From Elusimicrobiota bacterium (GTDB lineage: Bacteria > Elusimicrobiota > Elusimicrobia > UBA1565 > UBA9628), in assembly GCA_023249645.1 (NCBI GenBank), contig JAHFCF010000014.1, forward strand, positions 8,734-72,733: a stretch of DNA of 64,000 bases. The letters are read 5' to 3'. Positions 29,167 to 37,793 of the stretch are shown here, piece by piece; the first letter of the stretch is position 1, and the number at the start of each line of letters is the position of its first letter. The notes below the pieces were generated by a model. It was given only the letters and a program-made list of their open reading frames with translations, had not been told where the DNA came from and did not search any database. The position numbers were made by a program, and so were the translations under genes.

Positions 29167-29195
29167 GTTATAACAGGAATCCATTCTCTTGTCAA
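29167..29195 (-). promoter_or_regulatory. Candidate sigma70-type promoter of the pilM operon
   Basis: On the minus strand there is a -35 TTGACA (29195..29190), an exact 17-nt spacer and a -10 TATAAC (29172..29167), about 68 nt upstream of the pilM ATG. Confidence 0.5.
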
Positions 29196-29311
29196 GACCT
29201 TTAGTCATTGTCATTATAAAGAATCAATATCAAAAATAAATCAACGCCCGAACAGGAGGCTTTGGAGGCGCTTTTGTGGCAGCATTCTACAATATAGTAC
29301 AATGACAAAAC

Positions 29312-30673
29312 ATGGACGCGATCCTCTTTGATTTCGGCGGGACTTTGGATTCGGACGCCCTCCCTTGGATCGACCGCTTTGATCGTCTTTATGCGCAGGC
29401 CGGCCTGGCTCCGGACCGCACCCGGTTCGACCGGGCCTTTTACGATTCGGATGACAATCTGCCCGCACGGTTCCGCCTGCAGGGCCTCTCCCTGCAAGAA
29501 ACCCTGACCCTCCAGGTACGCTGTGTCTTGAATTCTCTGGCTCCCCAGCGCGTCGAGCAAACCGGTCCGATCGTGCAGGCATTCCTCGCTGAAAGCCGCG
29601 CCTCTTTCCGGCGCGTTCGCCCGGTCTTGGAGAGGCTCTCGCGCCGCTATCGCCTGGGCGTTGTGTCCAATTTCTATGGCAACCTTGACAGCGTCCTGGC
29701 CTCGGAGGGACTGCGCGACCTCTTTGCCGTCGTGATCGATTCCGGGGTCGTGGGCGCGACCAAGCCCGACCCCGCCATCTTCCAGGCCGCCCTCCAAGCC
29801 CTCGGGACCTCCCCGAAGAACACCCTCATGGTCGGGGACTCCCTGGCAAGGGACATGCGCGGAGCCGAAGCCTTGGGCATGCCTCACCTCTGGATCGCAG
29901 ACCTCTCCAAGCCTGCCTGCTGCCATCAGGCCCTGCGGGCAGCGTCCGTGGCGGACCTGGAAAAAGCGCTTGCGCCCCTGCGGGTCGGCATCATCGCCGC
30001 CGGAGAAGGCTCGCGGCTTCAATCCAGCCATCCCGAGACCATCAAGCCCCTGATCCCGATCCATGGCCGCCCTCTGTGCCACTGGATCGTCGATTCTCTC
30101 CGGGGAGCCGGGGCAACGGATTTCACCATCCTCTTCAATGCCAAAGGGCGTCAAGCGCCGGACAGCCTGCGAACGGCATTCCCCGATCTCCGATTTTCCT
30201 TCCTGGAGCGAGACACCGCCTCCTCTTGGGAAAGCTTCCGTTTGGTCGCCTCGACCCTGGCGCAAACCGAGGGGGACTTCCTCATCAGCACGGTCGACGC
30301 CCTGGTTCCTCCCTCTGCAATCCGACGCTTCGTTCAAGAAGCGCGCCGCAGCGGCGCGTCCGCCGCGCTGGCGATCACTTCCTTCATCGATGATGAGAAG
30401 CCCCTGTGGGCCGACGTGAGCCATGGCCGCGTCACCGCCTTGGGGGCGCAGGCGCGCCAGAAGACCCACGCGACCTGCGGCCTCTACTATATGACCGCTG
30501 AAGCGGTCCAGACATTCCCTTCCGCTGAGAAGTACGGCTCGCTGCGAGAATACCTATCCTCACTTGTCTGCGCAGGCCAGACCGCCGGCATCGTCCTGGC
30601 CAAGACCTTGGACGTGGACCGGCCCGAGGACGTGCGCCAGGCCGAGGCCTTTGTCACCGCGCTGAGGAGCTAG
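29312..30673 (+). CDS. Fusion protein: N-terminal HAD-IA hydrolase + C-terminal sugar/alcohol-phosphate nucleotidyltransferase
   Basis: The HAD half has LFDFGGTL (motif I), VVSNF (motif II), K at GATKPD, and VGDSLARD (motif IV). The nucleotidyltransferase half (from about residue 225) has GIIAAGEGSRL....KPLIPIHGRPL, the GxGxRL signature. Confidence 0.7.
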   Translation: MDAILFDFGGTLDSDALPWIDRFDRLYAQAGLAPDRTRFDRAFYDSDDNLPARFRLQGLSLQETLTLQVRCVLNSLAPQRVEQTGPIVQAFLAESRASFRRVRPVLERLSRRYRLGVVSNFYGNLDSVLASEGLRDLFAVVIDSGVVGATKPDPAIFQAALQALGTSPKNTLMVGDSLARDMRGAEALGMPHLWIADLSKPACCHQALRAASVADLEKALAPLRVGIIAAGEGSRLQSSHPETIKPLIPIHGRPLCHWIVDSLRGAGATDFTILFNAKGRQAPDSLRTAFPDLRFSFLERDTASSWESFRLVASTLAQTEGDFLISTVDALVPPSAIRRFVQEARRSGASAALAITSFIDDEKPLWADVSHGRVTALGAQARQKTHATCGLYYMTAEAVQTFPSAEKYGSLREYLSSLVCAGQTAGIVLAKTLDVDRPEDVRQAEAFVTALRS

Positions 30674-30678
30674 CCCGC

Positions 30679-31527
30679 ATGGTCTCCTGCCTGGGCATCT
30701 TCCGAGAATTGACGAACTCCCCGAACCGGGAAAGCGACGACGCCCTCATCCTCAAGGCGGTCATGGACCAGCTCGGGATCTATAAGACCCACACGCAGAC
30801 CATGACCCCGGAAGAGGCGGACACCGCGGATTTGAGCTCCTGGGACATGATCGTGCCCATGTGCGAATCCTACCCGCGCTTGCGTCGACTGGCCGCGCTG
30901 AGACGGTCCCAGAACGTCGTGATGGTCAACCCTCCCGAGTCGGTCCTGGCGTGCTACCGCCTGGCCATGATCGAGGCTTTCTCTCATGACCCCAGCATCC
31001 TCATCCCTCACACGGAGACGCGCACGATCCAGGGCTCGGCCCAGATGCGCCCGCCGGCCTTCGACATCGCCAACGGCCTCTGGGTCAAGAGGGGAGACGT
31101 GCACAACACCTGCTCCCACGACGTGGTCTACGCTCAGGACTGGTCCGAGGTGGAGGCCATCCGCCAGGACTTCGCGGGCCGCGAGATATCCTCCTTGGTC
31201 CTGCAGCAGCACGTCGACGGGGACCTGGTCAAGTTCTACGGCGTGGGGCCCGGCCGCTGGTTCACCTACTTCTACCACGATCCAGCCACGGCGCGGAAGA
31301 TCCCCTTCGACATCGACATCCTCGCGGCCATGGCCGCAGCCGGGGCCTCTGCCTTGAAGCTCGAGGTCTTCGGCGGAGACGCCATCATCACGCCCTCGGG
31401 GCGTCTGTGCCTCATCGACATCAACTCCTGGCCGAGCTTCGCCCGCGTGCGCGCGGAAGCGGCCATCCAGATCGCCTGGCAGCTGCGCACGAGACTCAAA
31501 ACCCTGCAAGCCGTGAGGAAACCCTGA
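30679..31527 (+). CDS. ATP-grasp fold protein, ITPK1 (inositol-phosphate kinase)-like by motif
   Basis: WVKRGDVHNTCSHDVV, LVLQQHVDGDLVKFYGVG and VFGGDAIITPSGRLCLIDINSWPSF mirror, as I remember them, the ITPK1 segments CKTRVAHGTNSHEMA, VVQNFINHNAVLYKVFVVG and LFGIDIIIN....VIDINAFPGY. A generic ATP-grasp ligase cannot be excluded. Confidence 0.45.
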   Translation: MVSCLGIFRELTNSPNRESDDALILKAVMDQLGIYKTHTQTMTPEEADTADLSSWDMIVPMCESYPRLRRLAALRRSQNVVMVNPPESVLACYRLAMIEAFSHDPSILIPHTETRTIQGSAQMRPPAFDIANGLWVKRGDVHNTCSHDVVYAQDWSEVEAIRQDFAGREISSLVLQQHVDGDLVKFYGVGPGRWFTYFYHDPATARKIPFDIDILAAMAAAGASALKLEVFGGDAIITPSGRLCLIDINSWPSFARVRAEAAIQIAWQLRTRLKTLQAVRKP

Positions 31528-31529
31528 CC

Positions 31530-32885
31530 ATGCCACCATCCACGAACGCTCCCTCCAAGACCTTCCGTTACGCCCCGGGACCGAAGTCCAAGGCCCTCTT
31601 CGACGAGGAGCAAAAGAACATCGCTCCCGGCCTGCAGACCATCGCCCTCTACTCCCAGATCGCTCTCGAAAGCGGCCACGGCCGATATCTGCGCGACCTC
31701 GACGGCAAGGAGTATCTCGACTTCGTCGCCGGCATCGGCGTGGCTTCTTTGGGCTACTCCCACCCGGACTTCGTGCGCATCGTCTCCGAGCAATTGGCCA
31801 AGGTGTCCGTGGGCAGCTTCACCACGCCCCACCGGGCCTCCTTCGTCAAGACCCTGTCCACGATCACGCCCAAGGGTCTCGACCGCATCCAACTCTATTC
31901 CTCCGGGGCCGAGGCCGTGGAAGCGGCCGTGCGGCTGGCCAAGAGCCGGACCAAGAAATACGAGCTCGTCGGCTTCTGGGGGGGCTTCCATGGCAAGACG
32001 GGCGGCATCCTTCCGGTCTTGGGCGACAGCTTCAAGCACGACTTGGGGCCTCTCATGCCCGGTCTGTATCTGGCGCCCTATCCGAACCAGGACCATTGTC
32101 CCTTCGGAACGCAGGGTGAGCACGACTGCGCGGCCCACTGTCTGAGTTTCCTGCGCGAACTCTTGAAGCGCTCGACGGCCGGAGCTCTGGCCGCCATCAT
32201 CGCGGAGCCCATCCAAGGCACGGCCGGCAACGTCATCCCGGCCAAGGGCTTCCTCAAGGGCCTGCGAGCCCTCACTCAGGAGATGGGCGCCCTTCTCATT
32301 TCGGATGAGATGATCACGGGCTTCGGCCGCACCGGCCAATGGTGGGGCTGCGACCACGAAGGCATCACCCCGGACATCCTGACCGTGGGCAAGGGCCTGG
32401 GAGGGGGTTTCCCGGTCTCGGGCGTCATCACCTCGACGGAGATCGCCCAGTCCAAGCCCTGGGGCAACCCCAGCGGCTCCTCTTCGAGCTACGGCGGAAA
32501 TCCCCTGGCCTCGGCGGCCTGCGACGCGGCCCTTCAGATCCTCATCAAGGAAAAACTAGTGGAGAATTCCCGCCGGGTCGGGGCCAAGCTGCTCAAAAGC
32601 CTCCAGGAACTCAAGCTCCGATCCCCCCTCATCGGCCTGGTGCGCGGCCGGGGTCTCATGATCGGCGTGGAGCTGGTCAACCCCAAGACGAACAAGCCCC
32701 TCGAATCCCCGCTCTGCCGGGAGCTCTTCGAGGAATGCCTCACCCGCGGCCTGTTGACCATGTCCTACAATGCCGCTCTGCGCATCAACCCGCCCTTGAG
32801 CATCACCGAAGAAGAAGCGATGGCGGGCGTTGAGATCTTCACAGCGGCGCTCACGGCCGTGGCCTCCAGGCACGACCTCCGCTGA
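31530..32885 (+). CDS. Class-III (omega) PLP aminotransferase
   Basis: It has SSGAEAVEAAVRLAK, AEPIQGTAGNV, LISDEMITGFGRTGQWW and TVGKGLGGGFPVSG (the Schiff-base Lys). Confidence 0.8.
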   Translation: MPPSTNAPSKTFRYAPGPKSKALFDEEQKNIAPGLQTIALYSQIALESGHGRYLRDLDGKEYLDFVAGIGVASLGYSHPDFVRIVSEQLAKVSVGSFTTPHRASFVKTLSTITPKGLDRIQLYSSGAEAVEAAVRLAKSRTKKYELVGFWGGFHGKTGGILPVLGDSFKHDLGPLMPGLYLAPYPNQDHCPFGTQGEHDCAAHCLSFLRELLKRSTAGALAAIIAEPIQGTAGNVIPAKGFLKGLRALTQEMGALLISDEMITGFGRTGQWWGCDHEGITPDILTVGKGLGGGFPVSGVITSTEIAQSKPWGNPSGSSSSYGGNPLASAACDAALQILIKEKLVENSRRVGAKLLKSLQELKLRSPLIGLVRGRGLMIGVELVNPKTNKPLESPLCRELFEECLTRGLLTMSYNAALRINPPLSITEEEAMAGVEIFTAALTAVASRHDLR

Positions 32886-33910
32886 TGAGACTGCGCGGGG
32901 CCCTCATCGGATTCGGACAGGTGGCGCAGAACGCGCATGTCCCGGCTTTTCACAGCTCCGAAGACGTTGAGATCGTCGCCGTGGCCGACACCGCGCCCGC
33001 CCTGCGGGCTCAAGCGGCCCAAGCCTTCCCCGGAGCCAAGACCTATGCCTCGTTGAAGGACCTGCTGGCCGGCGAGAAGCGCTTGGATTTCGTGGACCTG
33101 GCCACGCCTCCATGGCTGCATGGCGCCCAAGCGTTGGAAGCTTTGGAACAGGACCTTCATGTCCTTTGCGAGAAGCCCCTGACCCTGGATGTCTCGCAAC
33201 TGCGACAGCTGGCGCAAAGCGCCGCACGCCGAGAGAAAACAGTCTTTACCGTTCATAACTGGGCGTATGCCCCCATCTGGGCCAAGGCCCAAGAGCTCCT
33301 CGCGCAAGGAGCCATCGGCGAGCCGCGCCACGCGGAGCTGCACGTCCTGAGGACCAAGCCGGCGCCCGGCCAGCAGGGAGACTGGCGCATGGACCGCCGC
33401 CTGGCCGGGGGAGGGATCCTGGTCGACCACGGCTGGCACAATCTCTATCTCCTGCGCCGCTGCCTCTTTCCCGCGGGCGCCGCGCAGTCGCCGCTCTTGA
33501 CCAGCGCGGTCCTCCACCGCCCCATGCCGACCGGCGCGGAGGATGAAGCCACTGTTTTTTTCCAGTTTTCGCAAGCGACCGCCCTGGTGCGACTCTCCTG
33601 GCGGGCCTCTTCCCGGTCCAATACGGCTCTCATCCAGGGCTCGACAGGGACCCTGGAACTGCGCGACGATCGCATTCTTTTGAGCTCTGTCGGAAAGCCG
33701 GAACAGACATTCTCCTTCCCCCAGAAGCTCTCCGCCGGCTCGGCTCATCCGGAGTGGTTCTCCGCCATGCTCCCGGATTTCCTCGCCGAGATCCGCGATC
33801 ACCGGCAGCGCGGCCGCAACCTCGCCGAAGCCGGCTTCGTCTTGGACCTCATCACGCGGGCTTATGCTGTTCCAACTCCGGCGCAGCCCCTGGAACAGAT
33901 GGCGGCTTGA
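32885..33910 (+). CDS. Gfo/Idh/MocA family NAD(P)-dependent oxidoreductase
   Basis: It has the Rossmann opening GALIGFGQVAQNAHVPAF and the CEKPL motif. Its ATG shares one base with the upstream TGA. Confidence 0.8.
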   Translation: MRLRGALIGFGQVAQNAHVPAFHSSEDVEIVAVADTAPALRAQAAQAFPGAKTYASLKDLLAGEKRLDFVDLATPPWLHGAQALEALEQDLHVLCEKPLTLDVSQLRQLAQSAARREKTVFTVHNWAYAPIWAKAQELLAQGAIGEPRHAELHVLRTKPAPGQQGDWRMDRRLAGGGILVDHGWHNLYLLRRCLFPAGAAQSPLLTSAVLHRPMPTGAEDEATVFFQFSQATALVRLSWRASSRSNTALIQGSTGTLELRDDRILLSSVGKPEQTFSFPQKLSAGSAHPEWFSAMLPDFLAEIRDHRQRGRNLAEAGFVLDLITRAYAVPTPAQPLEQMAA

Positions 33911-33911
33911 G

Positions 33912-35072
33912 ATGATCGAGAACGCCATCCTGTGGGTCCCCCCGGCTGAGTTTTTACAAAAACCGCGCCGCCTGGGAGGTCTCTCCATCCTGGAGCGCCA
34001 GCTTCACACTTTGAGCCGCGCCGGTCTGCGCCGGGTCTGGATCTCCACGCAAACTCAAGGAAGAACTCCTCAACCACTGCGTCTGCCTCCCGGGCTTGAG
34101 ATCGTTTGGACCGATCACGCGGCAGAAAAACCCGCCACCCCTTATCTGATCGTCTCGGGCGGCCATTTTCTGAGGACCGAGACCCTCTCCCGCATCGCCC
34201 GATTGCCGCTGGCCGGTCCCATCGCCTTTGTGGACGCCGGCCAGAGTTCCGTCATCCAGGCCATCACCGCGCCGTGCGAAGAGGCATCTGCCTGCCGCAA
34301 ACAAGATCTCCCCGAAGACTCCTCATGGGCCATCGCGGGGCCCACCGAAGATGCGGCGGCCCTGGATTGGCTCATGGAGGTCGGCATCAAAAGCCAGGAC
34401 GGCTTCATGGCGCGCCATTTCGACCGGCACATCTCCCTGGCCGTCTCCCGGACGCTCTTGGACACGCCCGTCTCGCCCAACATGATGACTCTGTTCAGCT
34501 GCGCCGTGGGCCTTCTCGGCACGTTCTTCTTCCTGATCCATCGGGAAAAAGCCCATCTGATCGGCGCGGCGCTGGTGTGGCTGCATTCGGTGCTGGACGG
34601 CTGCGACGGAGAGCTGGCTCGCATCCGGTTCCAGGAAAGCCCCTGGGGAGCGCAGATCGATTTCTGGGGGGACAATGTCGTGCACCTCTCCCTGTTCGCC
34701 TGTCTGGCCGTGGGCTTCGCGCGGGCCGACGCCAGCATCGTGCCGCTCGTGGGAGGAGCGATCGCCATGGTAGGCGTCGTCGGCTCAGCCATCCTGGTCC
34801 ACAACCGCAGACAAACATCCCCCACCCAGGCCGCGGCCGCATCTCCCCAGGGACATCCTCCCTGGACGCGCCTGGTGGTGCTCCTGGAACAGCGTGATTT
34901 CATCTACCTGCTCCTGTTCCTCGCCTACTTAAGCTGGTATTATCATTCCCTCCGGTTCACCTACGCCTTCATGTGGGCCGGCGTCGTAGGCACGTTTTTG
35001 TTCTTCACCATGATCAATTACATCGGGAGGTCCAACAGTGAACAAGAATTCCAACCGGATCGCGCCGGCTAA
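33912..35072 (+). CDS. CDP-alcohol phosphotransferase with an N-terminal cytoplasmic nucleotidyltransferase-like (degenerate) domain; DIPPS/AF2299-like architecture
   Basis: It matches D-G-x2-A-R-x8-G-x3-D-x3-D perfectly: DGCDGELAR-IRFQESPW-G-AQI-D-FWG-D. About 6 TM segments follow. The N-terminal 150 aa (ILWVPPAEF..LGGLSILERQLHTL) lack the GxGxR loop. Confidence 0.75.
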   Translation: MIENAILWVPPAEFLQKPRRLGGLSILERQLHTLSRAGLRRVWISTQTQGRTPQPLRLPPGLEIVWTDHAAEKPATPYLIVSGGHFLRTETLSRIARLPLAGPIAFVDAGQSSVIQAITAPCEEASACRKQDLPEDSSWAIAGPTEDAAALDWLMEVGIKSQDGFMARHFDRHISLAVSRTLLDTPVSPNMMTLFSCAVGLLGTFFFLIHREKAHLIGAALVWLHSVLDGCDGELARIRFQESPWGAQIDFWGDNVVHLSLFACLAVGFARADASIVPLVGGAIAMVGVVGSAILVHNRRQTSPTQAAAASPQGHPPWTRLVVLLEQRDFIYLLLFLAYLSWYYHSLRFTYAFMWAGVVGTFLFFTMINYIGRSNSEQEFQPDRAG

Positions 35073-36417
35073 GGGCACGCTGGGAGTCCTGCTGCCCGGC
35101 ATGGGCGCGGTCACGAGCACCTTCATCGCCGGCGTCGCCCTGGCCAAGAAGAACCAGGGACGTCTCATCGGATCGCTGACCCAGATGCAGACCATCCGTC
35201 TGGGCAAGCGCTACGAGCATCGCGCGCCCCTCATCAAGGATTTCGTCCCTCTGACCTCCATCGAGAACCTCGTCTTCGGCGGCTGGGATCTTTTCCCGGA
35301 CAATATGTACGAGGCGGCCATGAAGGCCGGGGTCCTGGAACCCAGGCACCTCGAGCCGATCCGCCGGGAATTAGAATCCATCGTCCCCATGACCGCGGTC
35401 TGGGACAAGACGTATCTCAAGAACCTCAAGGCCACCCATTTCAAGAAGGGCGCAACCAAGCGCAATCTGGCCCAGCAGATCATGGATGACATCGTGGCGT
35501 TCAAGCATCGCTCCGGCGTCGAGCGCCTCGTGATGCTCTGGTGCGGCTCCACCGAGATCCTGCCGCAGGATTCCCCGGTCCACAAGTCCCTCGCTGCTTT
35601 TGAAAAGGGCTTGGACTCCAACCATCCGGCCATCCCGCCGTCCATGATCTACACCTACGCGGCCTTGAAGATGGGCATCCCGTACGCCAACGGCGCGCCC
35701 AACCTCTCGGCGGACACTCCGGCCATGGTGGAACTCGCGGAGAAGACCGGCACGCCCATCATGGGCAAGGACTTCAAGACCGGACAGACCCTGATGAAGA
35801 CCACGATCTCGCCCATGCTCAAGGCGCGCATGCTCGCCCTGCGGGGCTGGTACTCGACCAACATCCTGGGCAACCGCGACGGCGAGGTGCTGGACGATCC
35901 GGGCTCGTTCAAGACCAAGGAAAAGAGCAAGATGTCGGTCCTCGACAGCATCCTCGAGCCCAAGCTCTATCCTCAGCTCTACGGCAAGTACCACCACAAG
36001 GTCCGCATCGACTACTACCCGCCGCGCGGCGACGCCAAGGAAGGCTGGGACAACATCGACATCGCGGGCTGGCTCGACATGCCCATGCAGATCAAGATCA
36101 ACTTCCTCTGCCGCGACTCGATCTTGGCCGCACCCATCGTGCTCGACCTAGTCCTCTTCATGGACCTGGCCAAGCGCGCGGGATTGAAAGGCATCCAGGA
36201 ATGGCTGTCTTTTTACTTCAAGTCCCCCCAATGCCGGGCCGACCTCGGCCCCGAGCACGACATCTTCATCCAGCACTTGAAGCTCAAGAACACCCTGCGT
36301 CTCTTGATGGGCGAGGAAGTCCTGGACCACTCGGGACTCGACTATTACGACCAGGCCAAGGGACTGCCCGCGCCGGCTGCGGCGGCCAAGCCATTGGCCA
36401 AAGGCAAGTCCCGATAG
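35038..36417 (+). CDS. ino1: myo-Inositol-1(3)-phosphate synthase
   Basis: It has LLPGMGAVTSTFIAG (the NAD site), YANGAPNLS and WYSTNILGNRDGEVL. The GTG start at 35038 is preceded by GGGAGG (35025-35030) and overlaps the upstream gene by 35 nt. Confidence 0.9.
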   Translation: MNKNSNRIAPAKGTLGVLLPGMGAVTSTFIAGVALAKKNQGRLIGSLTQMQTIRLGKRYEHRAPLIKDFVPLTSIENLVFGGWDLFPDNMYEAAMKAGVLEPRHLEPIRRELESIVPMTAVWDKTYLKNLKATHFKKGATKRNLAQQIMDDIVAFKHRSGVERLVMLWCGSTEILPQDSPVHKSLAAFEKGLDSNHPAIPPSMIYTYAALKMGIPYANGAPNLSADTPAMVELAEKTGTPIMGKDFKTGQTLMKTTISPMLKARMLALRGWYSTNILGNRDGEVLDDPGSFKTKEKSKMSVLDSILEPKLYPQLYGKYHHKVRIDYYPPRGDAKEGWDNIDIAGWLDMPMQIKINFLCRDSILAAPIVLDLVLFMDLAKRAGLKGIQEWLSFYFKSPQCRADLGPEHDIFIQHLKLKNTLRLLMGEEVLDHSGLDYYDQAKGLPAPAAAAKPLAKGKSR

Positions 36418-36494: not shown

Positions 36495-36704
36495 ATGACC
36501 AAGATAACCGTTTCCACCAAATACCAGGTCGTGATCCCCAAAGAGATCCGCGGCCAAGCGCGCGTGCGTAAGGGCGAGAAATTCATCGCCCTGGTCAAAG
36601 ACGGCGTCATCTCCCTTGTCGCCGAACGCCCCCTGAAGTATCTGCAGGGCTCTTTCAAGGGGATGAAAGCCACCGCCCTGCGCGACAAGCACGACCGCAC
36701 ATGA
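36495..36704 (+). CDS. vapB: AbrB/SpoVT-fold antitoxin (VapB type)
   Basis: The 69-aa protein has KITVSTKYQVVIPKEIR (the swapped-hairpin motif). A 4-nt overlap joins it to the PIN gene. Confidence 0.75.
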   Translation: MTKITVSTKYQVVIPKEIRGQARVRKGEKFIALVKDGVISLVAERPLKYLQGSFKGMKATALRDKHDRT

Positions 36705-37066
36705 TCCTGCTGGATTCTTCCGCTTGGATCGAATTTCTGACCGACGGCCCCGCGGCTCCGCGTATCGCCAAGGAAATGAGCTCCCCTTCACAGATACTCA
36801 CCCCCACTCTGGTTCTTTACGAAGTCTATAAGAAACTCAAGCGCGAACGCGGAGAAGAAGCCGCGTTAAGCGCCGTGGCCCAGCTCAACCAGACCCGCAT
36901 CGTCCCGCTGGATGATTCCCTGGCTCTAGGCGCGGCCGACATCAGCCTTGCCTTCGCTTTGCCCATGGCAGATTCCATCATCGCGGCCACGGCCAAAGTC
37001 CACGAAGCCAAGATACTCACTCTGGACAACGACTTCCGGAAGATTCCCTGGGCCGAAGTTCTCTAA
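36701..37066 (+). CDS. vapC: PIN-domain ribonuclease toxin
   Basis: It has MILLDSSAWIEF (the first acidic residue), ...E..., and MADSIIAATA...LTLDNDF (the distal Asp residues). Confidence 0.8.
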   Translation: MILLDSSAWIEFLTDGPAAPRIAKEMSSPSQILTPTLVLYEVYKKLKRERGEEAALSAVAQLNQTRIVPLDDSLALGAADISLAFALPMADSIIAATAKVHEAKILTLDNDFRKIPWAEVL

Positions 37067-37105
37067 GCATTCGATTTTGTATACTCCTCAAAGCACAAAA
37101 AATTT

Positions 37106-37429
37106 ATGGTAGAGCAAGCTCAAATAAAAACTTTCTGCGCCGCGGTGGCGCATCAATTCCATCCGCGTAAAATCATCCTTTTCGGTTCGTATGCTTATGG
37201 AAAGCCCACCAAGGATTCCGACGTAGACCTGCTGGTGATCATGGACCGGACACGGTATCACGGCGAACGGATATCCCTTCGGATAAGACAGGCCGTTCCA
37301 GCGGGATTCCCTCTTGATCTGCTTGTGCGGACGCCCAAATTCATTGCTCAGCGGATGGCTTGGGACGATTCTTTTACGCGGGAAATCATGGCCCGAGGCA
37401 AGGTGCTGTATGAAACCTCTCACGCGTGA
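37106..37429 (+). CDS. Minimal nucleotidyltransferase (MNT), partner of the HEPN protein
   Basis: It has the pol-beta-type motif LFGSYAYGKPTKDSDVDLLV. Confidence 0.75.
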   Translation: MVEQAQIKTFCAAVAHQFHPRKIILFGSYAYGKPTKDSDVDLLVIMDRTRYHGERISLRIRQAVPAGFPLDLLVRTPKFIAQRMAWDDSFTREIMARGKVLYETSHA

Positions 37430-37793
37430 ATGGCTGGAGAAGGCCGAAGGGGATTTCCTGGTCGCCAGCCAAATCATGCGGAGCAGTCGGCGCGTTCATG
37501 ACGCCGCGTGTTTCCACTGCCAACAGACGATAGAGAAGTATTTTAAAGCCCGGCTCTGCCAGGCGGGCGTGGCCTTCCCAAAAACCCACGATTTGGTTGT
37601 CTTGCTGCACCTGGTGCTGCCTGCCGAACCACTGTGGAAGTCCTATGAGCCGGCGGCCAAACGATTGACGGAATATGCAGTGAGCTTCCGCTATCCCGGT
37701 GATAAAGCCACCCAAGCCGAAGCCAAACTGGCCTTGAAATACTGCCGCTCGTTGCGGGGCGAAGTGCGACGTAGTCTGGGAATGAAAGTCTGA
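37410..37793 (+). CDS. HEPN-domain protein
   Basis: Starting from MKPLTREWLEKAEGDF it is all-helical, with HCQQTIEKYFKA and YAVSFRYPG. It overlaps the MNT gene by 20 nt. Confidence 0.7.
   Translation: MKPLTREWLEKAEGDFLVASQIMRSSRRVHDAACFHCQQTIEKYFKARLCQAGVAFPKTHDLVVLLHLVLPAEPLWKSYEPAAKRLTEYAVSFRYPGDKATQAEAKLALKYCRSLRGEVRRSLGMKV

Follow-up and report, generated by a model that had tools for sequence, protein, structure and literature searches.

A conserved Elusimicrobiota operon predicted to encode a CDP-cyclitol pathway to a probably aminated inositol phosphodiester

Introduction

The operon analyzed here occupies positions 29312-36417 of a 64,000-nucleotide stretch of the Elusimicrobiota contig JAHFCF010000014.1 (the window), and its closest described counterparts come from the chemistry of inositol solutes, aminated rings and inositol lipids. 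Solutes of the di-myo-inositol-phosphate (DIP) type are known from thermophiles and hyperthermophiles. The conversion of a ring CHOH to CH-NH2 is the standard work of a Gfo/Idh/MocA dehydrogenase followed by an aminotransferase, with precedents in StrI/StsC and IdhA/MosB, which act on inositol, and in NtdC/NtdA, which act on glucose-6-phosphate in a set (NtdABC) that includes the HAD phosphatase NtdB and has a sugar phosphate as its substrate. Among the CDP-alcohol phosphotransferases, enzymes with six transmembrane (TM) helices use soluble acceptors while the lipid-acceptor CPT/CEPT enzymes have 3-4 extra helices, and neither AF2299 nor DIP-phosphate synthase (DIPPS) processes lipids (Clarke et al. 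2015, PMC4634129). In Bacteroides (Phocaeicola) vulgatus and Prevotella, a putative, unconfirmed 'alternative inositol lipid cluster' contains genes for myo-inositol-phosphate synthase (MIPS), a protein with an NTP-transferase domain, a CDP-alcohol phosphatidyltransferase and a HAD hydrolase; LPG-synthase-like and BT_1527-like genes often lie nearby, a fusion of the transferase to the HAD hydrolase was noted, no ATP-grasp domain was mentioned, and strains carrying the cluster make inositol sphingolipids (Heaver et al. 2022, PMC9246714).

The operon encodes seven enzyme modules, which are a HAD domain, a MobA-type nucleotidyltransferase, an ATP-grasp enzyme, a class-III aminotransferase, a Gfo/Idh/MocA dehydrogenase, a CDP-alcohol phosphotransferase and MIPS. 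Like the alternative inositol lipid cluster, the window co-locates MIPS, an NTP transferase, a CDP-alcohol phosphotransferase and a HAD protein; unlike it, and that cluster is itself only predicted, the window also has a dehydrogenase and an aminotransferase. With the DIP pathway and AF2299 it shares MIPS, a cytidylyltransferase-type enzyme and a six-TM transferase with an N-terminal nucleotidyltransferase-fold domain, whereas the loss of the GxGxR motif from that N-domain, the separate nucleotidyltransferase and three extra enzymes set it apart from the DIP pathway. The order of a Gfo/Idh/MocA dehydrogenase and then a pyridoxal-phosphate (PLP) aminotransferase matches the scyllo-inosamine routes (StrI/StsC, IdhA/MosB) and the NtdC/NtdA/NtdB kanosamine route. 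Unlike in the scyllo-inosamine routes, the aminotransferase is of class III (GabT-like) instead of the DegT/DnrJ/EryC1 type; unlike in aminocyclitol routes, the window has no other antibiotic-pathway genes and combines the pair with CDP activation and a membrane transferase.

The initial annotation held that this enzyme set exceeds any described inositol pathway. In part this stands, as the literature yielded no characterized pathway with this set, no inosamine phospholipid head group or polar lipid, no report joining CDP-inositol to an ATP-grasp enzyme and no work on inositol in Elusimicrobia, but the core of the set is that of the predicted alternative inositol lipid cluster (PMC9246714). 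Here, we propose with moderate confidence that the operon encodes a CDP-cyclitol pathway to a phosphodiester-linked, probably aminated inositol (inosamine-type), which would most likely serve an envelope lipid as its polar head group.

Operon organization and conservation

Six tightly packed open reading frames (ORFs) on the plus strand encode the seven modules:

29189..29311, plus strand: AT-rich divergent intergenic region between pilM (minus strand) and the first operon gene, with promoter-like hexamers
29312..30673, plus strand: HAD-IA and MobA-like nucleotidyltransferase fusion, 453 amino acids (Pfam Hydrolase 74 bits, NTP_transf_3 45 bits)
30679..31527, plus strand: ATP-grasp enzyme, 282 amino acids (AlphaFold model, ATP-grasp fold)
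31530..32885, plus strand: class-III (GabT/ArgD-like) PLP aminotransferase, 451 amino acids (Pfam Aminotran_3 342 bits)
32885..33910, plus strand: Gfo/Idh/MocA NAD(P) dehydrogenase, 341 amino acids (Pfam GFO_IDH_MocA and C-terminal domains)
33912..35072, plus strand: AF2299/DIPPS-like CDP-alcohol phosphotransferase, 386 amino acids (Pfam CDP-OH_P_transf, residues 188-362)
35038..36417, plus strand: myo-inositol-3-phosphate synthase (MIPS), 459 amino acids, GTG start (Pfam NAD_binding_5 317 bits, Inos-1-P_synth 115 bits)

The ORF coordinates bear out the six genes and all five junctions first reported, which are, in gene order, a 5-nucleotide gap, a 2-nucleotide gap, a 1-nucleotide overlap (TGATG), a 1-nucleotide gap and a 35-nucleotide overlap; the last also occurs in two relatives (L001 and L003). 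Upstream of genes 2, 3 and 6 lie the Shine-Dalgarno-like sequences GAGGAG, GAGGAA and GGGAGG, respectively. The maximal ORF of the aminotransferase gene begins at GTG 31407, but it is ATG 31530 that is preceded by GAGGAA. Promoter-like hexamers are confined to the 116-base-pair AT-rich gap between the operon and the divergent pilM, upstream of the first gene, where three sigma-70-like sites (29189-29303) are matches to the consensus only, and no convincing terminator-like site was found in the operon interior. Pfam confirms the earlier family calls (HAD with NTP_transf_3, Aminotran_3, GFO_IDH_MocA, CDP-OH_P_transf and MIPS), the ATP-grasp call is confirmed by the fold of its model, and none of the six proteins reaches any NCBIfam equivalog.

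The arrangement is widespread in the phylum. In a scan with one genome per species, the ATP-grasp enzyme is present in 225 species genomes, nearly all of them Elusimicrobiota. Further, the seven modules were compared by tblastn with 80 loci, among which 49 species-level loci with enough flanking sequence were counted; since all seven modules occur in the window's order in 42 of these 49 Elusimicrobiota loci, the arrangement is not due to chance, and the conservation of gene order proposed as a check was found. Median identities across loci range from 44% for the transferase to 77% for MIPS. No other gene of the operon is as well conserved as that for MIPS, with 71-84% identity among Elusimicrobiota and catalytic-region residues conserved across 49 orthologues. 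The neighbors are as initially annotated, with PilM, secretin and Wzy_C genes divergently upstream and BamA, OmpH and LpxD genes downstream, and relatives conserve both flanks (pilMNO-secretin-Wzy_C and bamA-ompH(skp)-lpxD-lpxC). The description as a six-gene operon is right for the window but not in general: 68 relatives encode the HAD and nucleotidyltransferase by two genes, and the fusion is limited to 7, which belong to the window's clade and two other loci only, making the six-gene form clade-specific.

A variant arrangement occurs in two related Elusimicrobiota metagenome-assembled genomes (MAGs; L044 7392-11032 and L042 2381-7808). There, a MarR-like gene on the minus strand is followed by genes for the ATP-grasp enzyme, a universal stress protein, a dienelactone hydrolase, the CDP-alcohol transferase and MIPS, while the HAD, NTP transferase, aminotransferase and dehydrogenase are absent nearby. 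The MAG that holds L044 also contains a full cluster (L034), indicating a second copy or a mixed bin. In two other loci (L082, named Elusimicrobiaceae, and L083), with ATP-grasp enzymes of ~47% identity, the genes for the HAD, NTP transferase, ATP-grasp, aminotransferase and dehydrogenase adjoin pilM; in L083, a UbiE-type methyltransferase and unknown genes replace the transferase and MIPS, which are elsewhere or absent.

Related clusters in other lineages

The seven-module set recurs in two Acidobacteriota-type contigs (L085 and the P0393 contig, the latter with a cluster-mate named Thermoanaerobaculia), where the order is dxs, ispH, LPG_synthase_TM, HAD, NTP transferase and ATP-grasp (adjacent or joined), aminotransferase, dehydrogenase, transferase, MIPS and MacA/MacB/OEP. 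In two further loci (L088 and L089), the ATP-grasp, aminotransferase and dehydrogenase stay together. Overall, the dehydrogenase/aminotransferase pair is an optional module that, when present, always adjoins the ATP-grasp gene.

Bacteroidota-type loci with ATP-grasp-HAD or NTP-ATP-grasp fusions (L087 and L090) have no aminotransferase and no dehydrogenase. In particular, L087 contains an ATP-grasp-HAD fusion, MIPS, a BT_1527-like gene, an NTP transferase and a CDP-OH transferase, and its proteins are 32% (HAD), 28% (NTP transferase), 33% (ATP-grasp) and 51% (MIPS) identical to those of the window; in contrast, its transferase is shorter (318 amino acids) and is not matched by the window's transferase at E 1e-5. 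L087 resembles the B. vulgatus-type cluster in gene content and source names (Bacteroidaceae, Prevotella). The same HAD type is also found fused to a CDP-alcohol transferase (source names Prevotella and Paramuribaculum) and to LPG_synthase_TM (PF03706, the MprF flippase-domain family).

From these comparisons, the ATP-grasp enzyme is part of Bacteroidota-type clusters as well, and a five-enzyme core (MIPS, HAD, ATP-grasp, nucleotidyltransferase and CDP-alcohol transferase) appears common to Bacteroidota clusters of the kind predicted to make inositol lipids. The dehydrogenase and aminotransferase would be an add-on that marks an 'amino' version of the cluster in Elusimicrobiota, the Acidobacteriota-type lineage and other lineages.

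In one metagenomic contig (L086 1-17969), two versions of the module flank dxs-ispH, one with the aminotransferase and one that lacks it and has an ATP-grasp/transferase fusion, and both adjoin genes for a squalene-hopene cyclase, an hpnH-like radical SAM protein, an hpnG-like protein and an SQS_PSY protein; this context suggests a link to hopanoid/isoprenoid lipid loci.

Predicted pathway

In the proposed pathway, MIPS would cyclize glucose-6-phosphate to inositol-3-phosphate, and the dehydrogenase and aminotransferase would together replace one ring CHOH by CH-NH2 with a keto-cyclitol as intermediate, using either free inositol after dephosphorylation or a phosphate ester as the substrate. 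The ATP-grasp enzyme, acting as a kinase, would provide the phosphate for the cytidylyltransferase, the MobA-type nucleotidyltransferase would form the CDP-cyclitol, and the AF2299-like membrane transferase would then form the phosphodiester and release CMP. The HAD domain would strip the leftover phosphate, either early from the MIPS product or last from the transferase product.

The fusion protein that begins the operon consists of a HAD-IA domain (amino acids 1-~215; positions 29312-29960) and a nucleotidyltransferase domain (~220-453), and a PDB sequence search with it returned generic neighbors only. The nucleotidyltransferase half keeps the GxGxR...K motif and aligns over the entire inositol-phosphate cytidylyltransferase (IPCT) domain of NF041135 (E 3.5e-7), making it a probable cytidylyltransferase for a cyclitol phosphate. 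The HAD domain is HDHD3/REG-2-like and keeps the nucleophile Asp7, Ser119, Lys151 and Asp176. Its motif I reads DFGGT in the window and D-[FY]-G-G-T-L-D in all 73 of 73 Elusimicrobiota orthologues, as well as in L085, L086 and P0386. Because this HAD type also occurs joined to membrane proteins, it may work at the membrane, on the product of the transferase.

The CDP-alcohol phosphotransferase carries the complete motif D229xxD232G233xxA236R237x8G246xxxD250xxxD254, invariant in 32 relatives. When its profile is compared with the PDB, the best match is AF2299 of Archaeoglobus fulgidus (E 2.5e-31), followed by AfIPCT-DIPPS (3e-16) and the PIP synthases (1e-9 to 1e-11). The AlphaFold model (predicted local distance difference test, pLDDT, 84) has a juxtamembrane helix and six TM helices and superposes over its full length on AF2299 (4o6m; Foldseek TM 0.68/0.77), and its N-domain (amino acids 1-~160) alone matches RmlA, MurU and IspD in Foldseek; therefore, the 'extra N-domain' of the initial annotation is a degenerate nucleotidyltransferase-fold domain that has lost GxGxR, as in AF2299. 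The signature, the six TM helices and the N-terminal cytidylyltransferase-like domain together place the enzyme in the AF2299-like class I.

The 282-amino-acid protein has no Pfam or NCBIfam match above threshold, and its AlphaFold model (pLDDT 90) has a clear ATP-grasp fold according to Foldseek, in which kinase and ligase folds match equally well and are not separated. The only PDB sequence matches are ITPKs (ITPK4/ITPK1), which are weak (E 0.018-0.26), and the Pfam family Ins134_P3_kin (PF05770) scores 11.5 bits, below its gathering score of 23. Like the ITPK1-type kinases, the enzyme has an ATP-grasp fold with a G-x-D...D-x-N-x-x-P metal-binding region, in which all of 129 family members carry D234, D247 and N249, aligned with ITPK1/ITPK4 residues; unlike them, its similarity lies below every family threshold. 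It appears to define an undescribed subfamily, for which a hidden Markov model search of 1.84 billion cluster representatives yields 272 clusters at E<=1e-30, or 755 when the limit is relaxed to E<=1e-10. The family occurs in fusions with NTP_transf_3 (six clusters), with HAD and NTP transferase together, with the N-domain and CDP-OH transferase, and with HAD; fusions of the ATP-grasp-HAD kind abound in metagenomes of Bacteroidales, in clusters of up to 1592 members.

Successive steps are often paired by joining a kinase with a nucleotidyltransferase, as in HldE, FKP and LicC/LicA. Because of the recurrent nucleotidyltransferase fusion, the weak but exclusive ITPK matches in the PDB and the D-x-N motif, the likeliest role of the ATP-grasp enzyme is to phosphorylate inositol, inosamine or an inositol phosphate ahead of the cytidylyltransferase step. 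As a precedent, ITPK1 phosphorylates Ins(3)P derived from glucose-6-phosphate (PMC6900528). The initial annotation had placed the ATP-grasp enzyme outside the inositol core, and this did not hold: the family is present in clusters with no amination genes, which argues for a core pathway enzyme rather than an amine acylase.

In the aminotransferase, the Schiff-base Lys288 is conserved and the nearest PDB entry is 7vno (254 bits), while its best NCBIfam models are of the acetylornithine/GABA type, all below cut-off. The dehydrogenase conserves the EKP and D-x3-H motifs, its NCBIfam scores for iolG (64 bits, cut-off 355) and UDP-GlcNAc 3-dehydrogenase (65 bits) are both far below cut-off, and its PDB neighbors include the scyllo-inositol dehydrogenase 5ya8; PDB sequence searches with the two enzymes gave generic neighbors only. 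Because MIPS stands in the same operon as this pair, an inosamine-type product is the natural reading, and we infer that the dehydrogenase oxidizes a ring hydroxyl of inositol or inositol phosphate and that the aminotransferase aminates the resulting keto-cyclitol. The classical inosose-inosamine route named at first agrees with the dehydrogenase family but not with the aminotransferase, which is class III and not DegT-type.

Two further pathways were considered and rejected. An amino-group-carrier pathway of the LysX/LysW/LysJ type was prompted by structural matches of the ATP-grasp enzyme to ArgX/LysX and by the ArgD/LysJ-like aminotransferase; LysW, LysZ and LysY are absent, and the ATP-grasp enzyme is found without the aminotransferase. 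A phosphonate pathway (PntC/2-aminoethylphosphonate) was prompted by a Foldseek match to 6pd2, and no phosphoenolpyruvate mutase is present.

Nature of the product and alternative explanations

A lipid product appears roughly twice as likely as a soluble one. It is favored because relatives fuse the HAD to two integral membrane proteins (LPG_synthase_TM and the transferase), because flippase-like, MacAB-OEP and hopanoid/isoprenoid genes flank related clusters, because the operon keeps its place beside bamA-skp-lpxD-lpxC in Elusimicrobiota, and because Bacteroidota with an analogous cluster make inositol sphingolipids (PMC9246714).

Several observations weigh against the proposed pathway or its lipid product. 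The affinity of the transferase to AF2299 and DIPPS and its six-TM architecture are the main argument for a soluble product; in particular, its JM1-TM3 region is ~60% identical to that of AF2299, whose binding site for CDP-glycerol is a small hydrophilic pocket. No LPG_synthase_TM homologue was found in the window or in the Elusimicrobiota loci. In 73 of 73 orthologues, the HAD lacks the general-acid Asp+2, with Gly at this position, and the replacement, unusual for a phosphomonoesterase, is kept across Elusimicrobiota, the Acidobacteriota-type lineage and Bacteroidota, so that mapping the HAD as 'the phosphatase' is uncertain. The top Foldseek matches of the ATP-grasp enzyme are the ligases ArgX/LysX, in a list that mixes these and DcsG, Ddl and RimK with ITPK1 (ZmITPK1, StITPK1) and PPIP5K2, and weak Pfam matches among 30 members (E<=10) are also mixed (YheCD in 17/30, RimK in 12/30 and Ins134_P3_kin in 8/30). 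Finally, sequence cannot fix the substrate of the aminotransferase or of the dehydrogenase.

The alternative that survives best, which we regard as possible though unlikely, is a soluble, DIP/GPI-like compatible solute, for example an inosamine-inositol phosphate zwitterion, formed from a CDP-cyclitol donor and a cyclitol-phosphate acceptor and then dephosphorylated by the HAD. It would agree with the six TM helices and AF2299-like donor region of the transferase, with the invariant Arg328-Asp329 in its TM5, which aligns with the RD of DIPPS, and with the variant loci L044 and L042, where genes for a universal stress protein and a MarR-like regulator accompany those for the ATP-grasp enzyme, transferase and MIPS. 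Moreover, the best solved relatives of the transferase, AF2299 and IPCT-DIPPS, are not lipid-processing enzymes (PMC4634129). Against a solute stand the membrane-protein fusions of the HAD, the flippase-like, exporter and hopanoid/isoprenoid neighbors and the Bacteroidota inositol lipids already described, and the sources of related MAGs, named from groundwater, palsa and other ambient-temperature samples, unlike the (hyper)thermophilic producers of DIP-type solutes. Nor is the earlier mapping of all four DIP activities onto the operon fully upheld: MIPS is intact, but the transferase scores 76 bits against the IPCT/DIPPS equivalog NF041135 (cut-off 580), short of a DIPPS identity and closer to AF2299, and the phosphatase assignment is affected by the Gly at Asp+2.

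A second and less probable explanation, which we consider improbable, is that the ATP-grasp enzyme works as an amide ligase on the inosamine amine, acylating it, for instance with an amino acid, to give an N-acyl-inosamine phosphodiester. The ligase structures at the top of the Foldseek list, the weak RimK and YheCD matches and the label 'RimK-type ligase' given to relatives by some sources are consistent with it, but the enzyme also occurs in clusters that lack the aminotransferase and dehydrogenase (L087, L090 and L044), and it is fused to a nucleotidyltransferase in at least six clusters. Further, ATP-grasp ligases usually carry E-x-N, whereas this family has D-x-N in its metal-binding motif, the same as the aligned ITPK sequences.

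Very improbably, the dehydrogenase and aminotransferase are not inositol enzymes at all but a GnnA/GnnB-like amino-sugar pair for lipid A/lipopolysaccharide, or ArgD/GabT-type housekeeping passengers beside a plain inositol-phosphodiester module, which would fit the position shortly upstream of bamA-skp-lpxD-lpxC, the equal dehydrogenase scores, the acetylornithine/GABA-type aminotransferase models and the HAD-NTP-GRASP-AT3-GFO sets of L082 and L083 with no MIPS or transferase nearby, but is countered by the position of the pair, flanked by the ATP-grasp enzyme on one side and the CDP-alcohol transferase on the other, in Elusimicrobiota and equally in three loci with no lpx genes nearby (L085, the P0393 contig and L088), by the conserved tight coupling (1-nucleotide overlap, 1-2-nucleotide gaps), and by GnnB being a DegT-type aminotransferase where the window's enzyme is class III.

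Implications

The general expectation of an inositol or inosamine phosphodiester, as either a solute or a lipid head group, stands. The operon likely represents a new product class (an aminocyclitol phosphodiester) together with a newly recognized ATP-grasp component of CDP-alcohol/inositol phosphodiester systems. More tentatively, and with less confidence than in the pathway itself, undescribed aminocyclitol (inosamine) phospholipids or phospho-conjugates may occur in Elusimicrobiota, the Acidobacteriota-type lineage and other phyla, made by a Kennedy-like CDP-inosamine route whose kinase would be a new bacterial ITPK-like ATP-grasp family, also the missing enzyme of the inositol-lipid pathway in human-gut Prevotella and Phocaeicola vulgatus.

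If so, bacteria would have a membrane or envelope component of a new kind, a zwitterionic aminocyclitol head group, present in most of a poorly known phylum (the 225 species genomes) and in at least one other. With its 272 clusters at E<=1e-30, the ATP-grasp family would then be a bacterial cyclitol or cyclitol-phosphate kinase, extending to bacteria an ITPK-type chemistry that, to our knowledge, has so far been reported from eukaryotes and Asgard archaea. Further, inositol-lipid synthesis in gut Bacteroidota that lack the B. thetaiotaomicron-type genes would become testable through the five-enzyme model, and the fusion proteins would point to which steps of the pathway are adjacent.

Other features of the locus

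No tRNA and no Rfam match was found in the window. Between the MIPS stop codon and bamA lies a low-GC (0.556) insertion (36495-37793) that is absent in relatives, where bamA starts ~80-120 nucleotides after MIPS. It holds two toxin-antitoxin pairs, the first a MazE/AbrB-type antitoxin (36495-36704) with a PIN toxin (36701-37066) and the second an MNT nucleotidyltransferase (37106-37429) with a HEPN protein (within 37314-37793). Minus-strand ORFs of 289-422 amino acids run antisense over the operon (29201-30469, 30670-31539, 31272-32357 and 32765-33988); their translations are rich in Arg, Gly and Ala, as is typical of non-coding frames in DNA of 63% GC, and they are very likely not genes.

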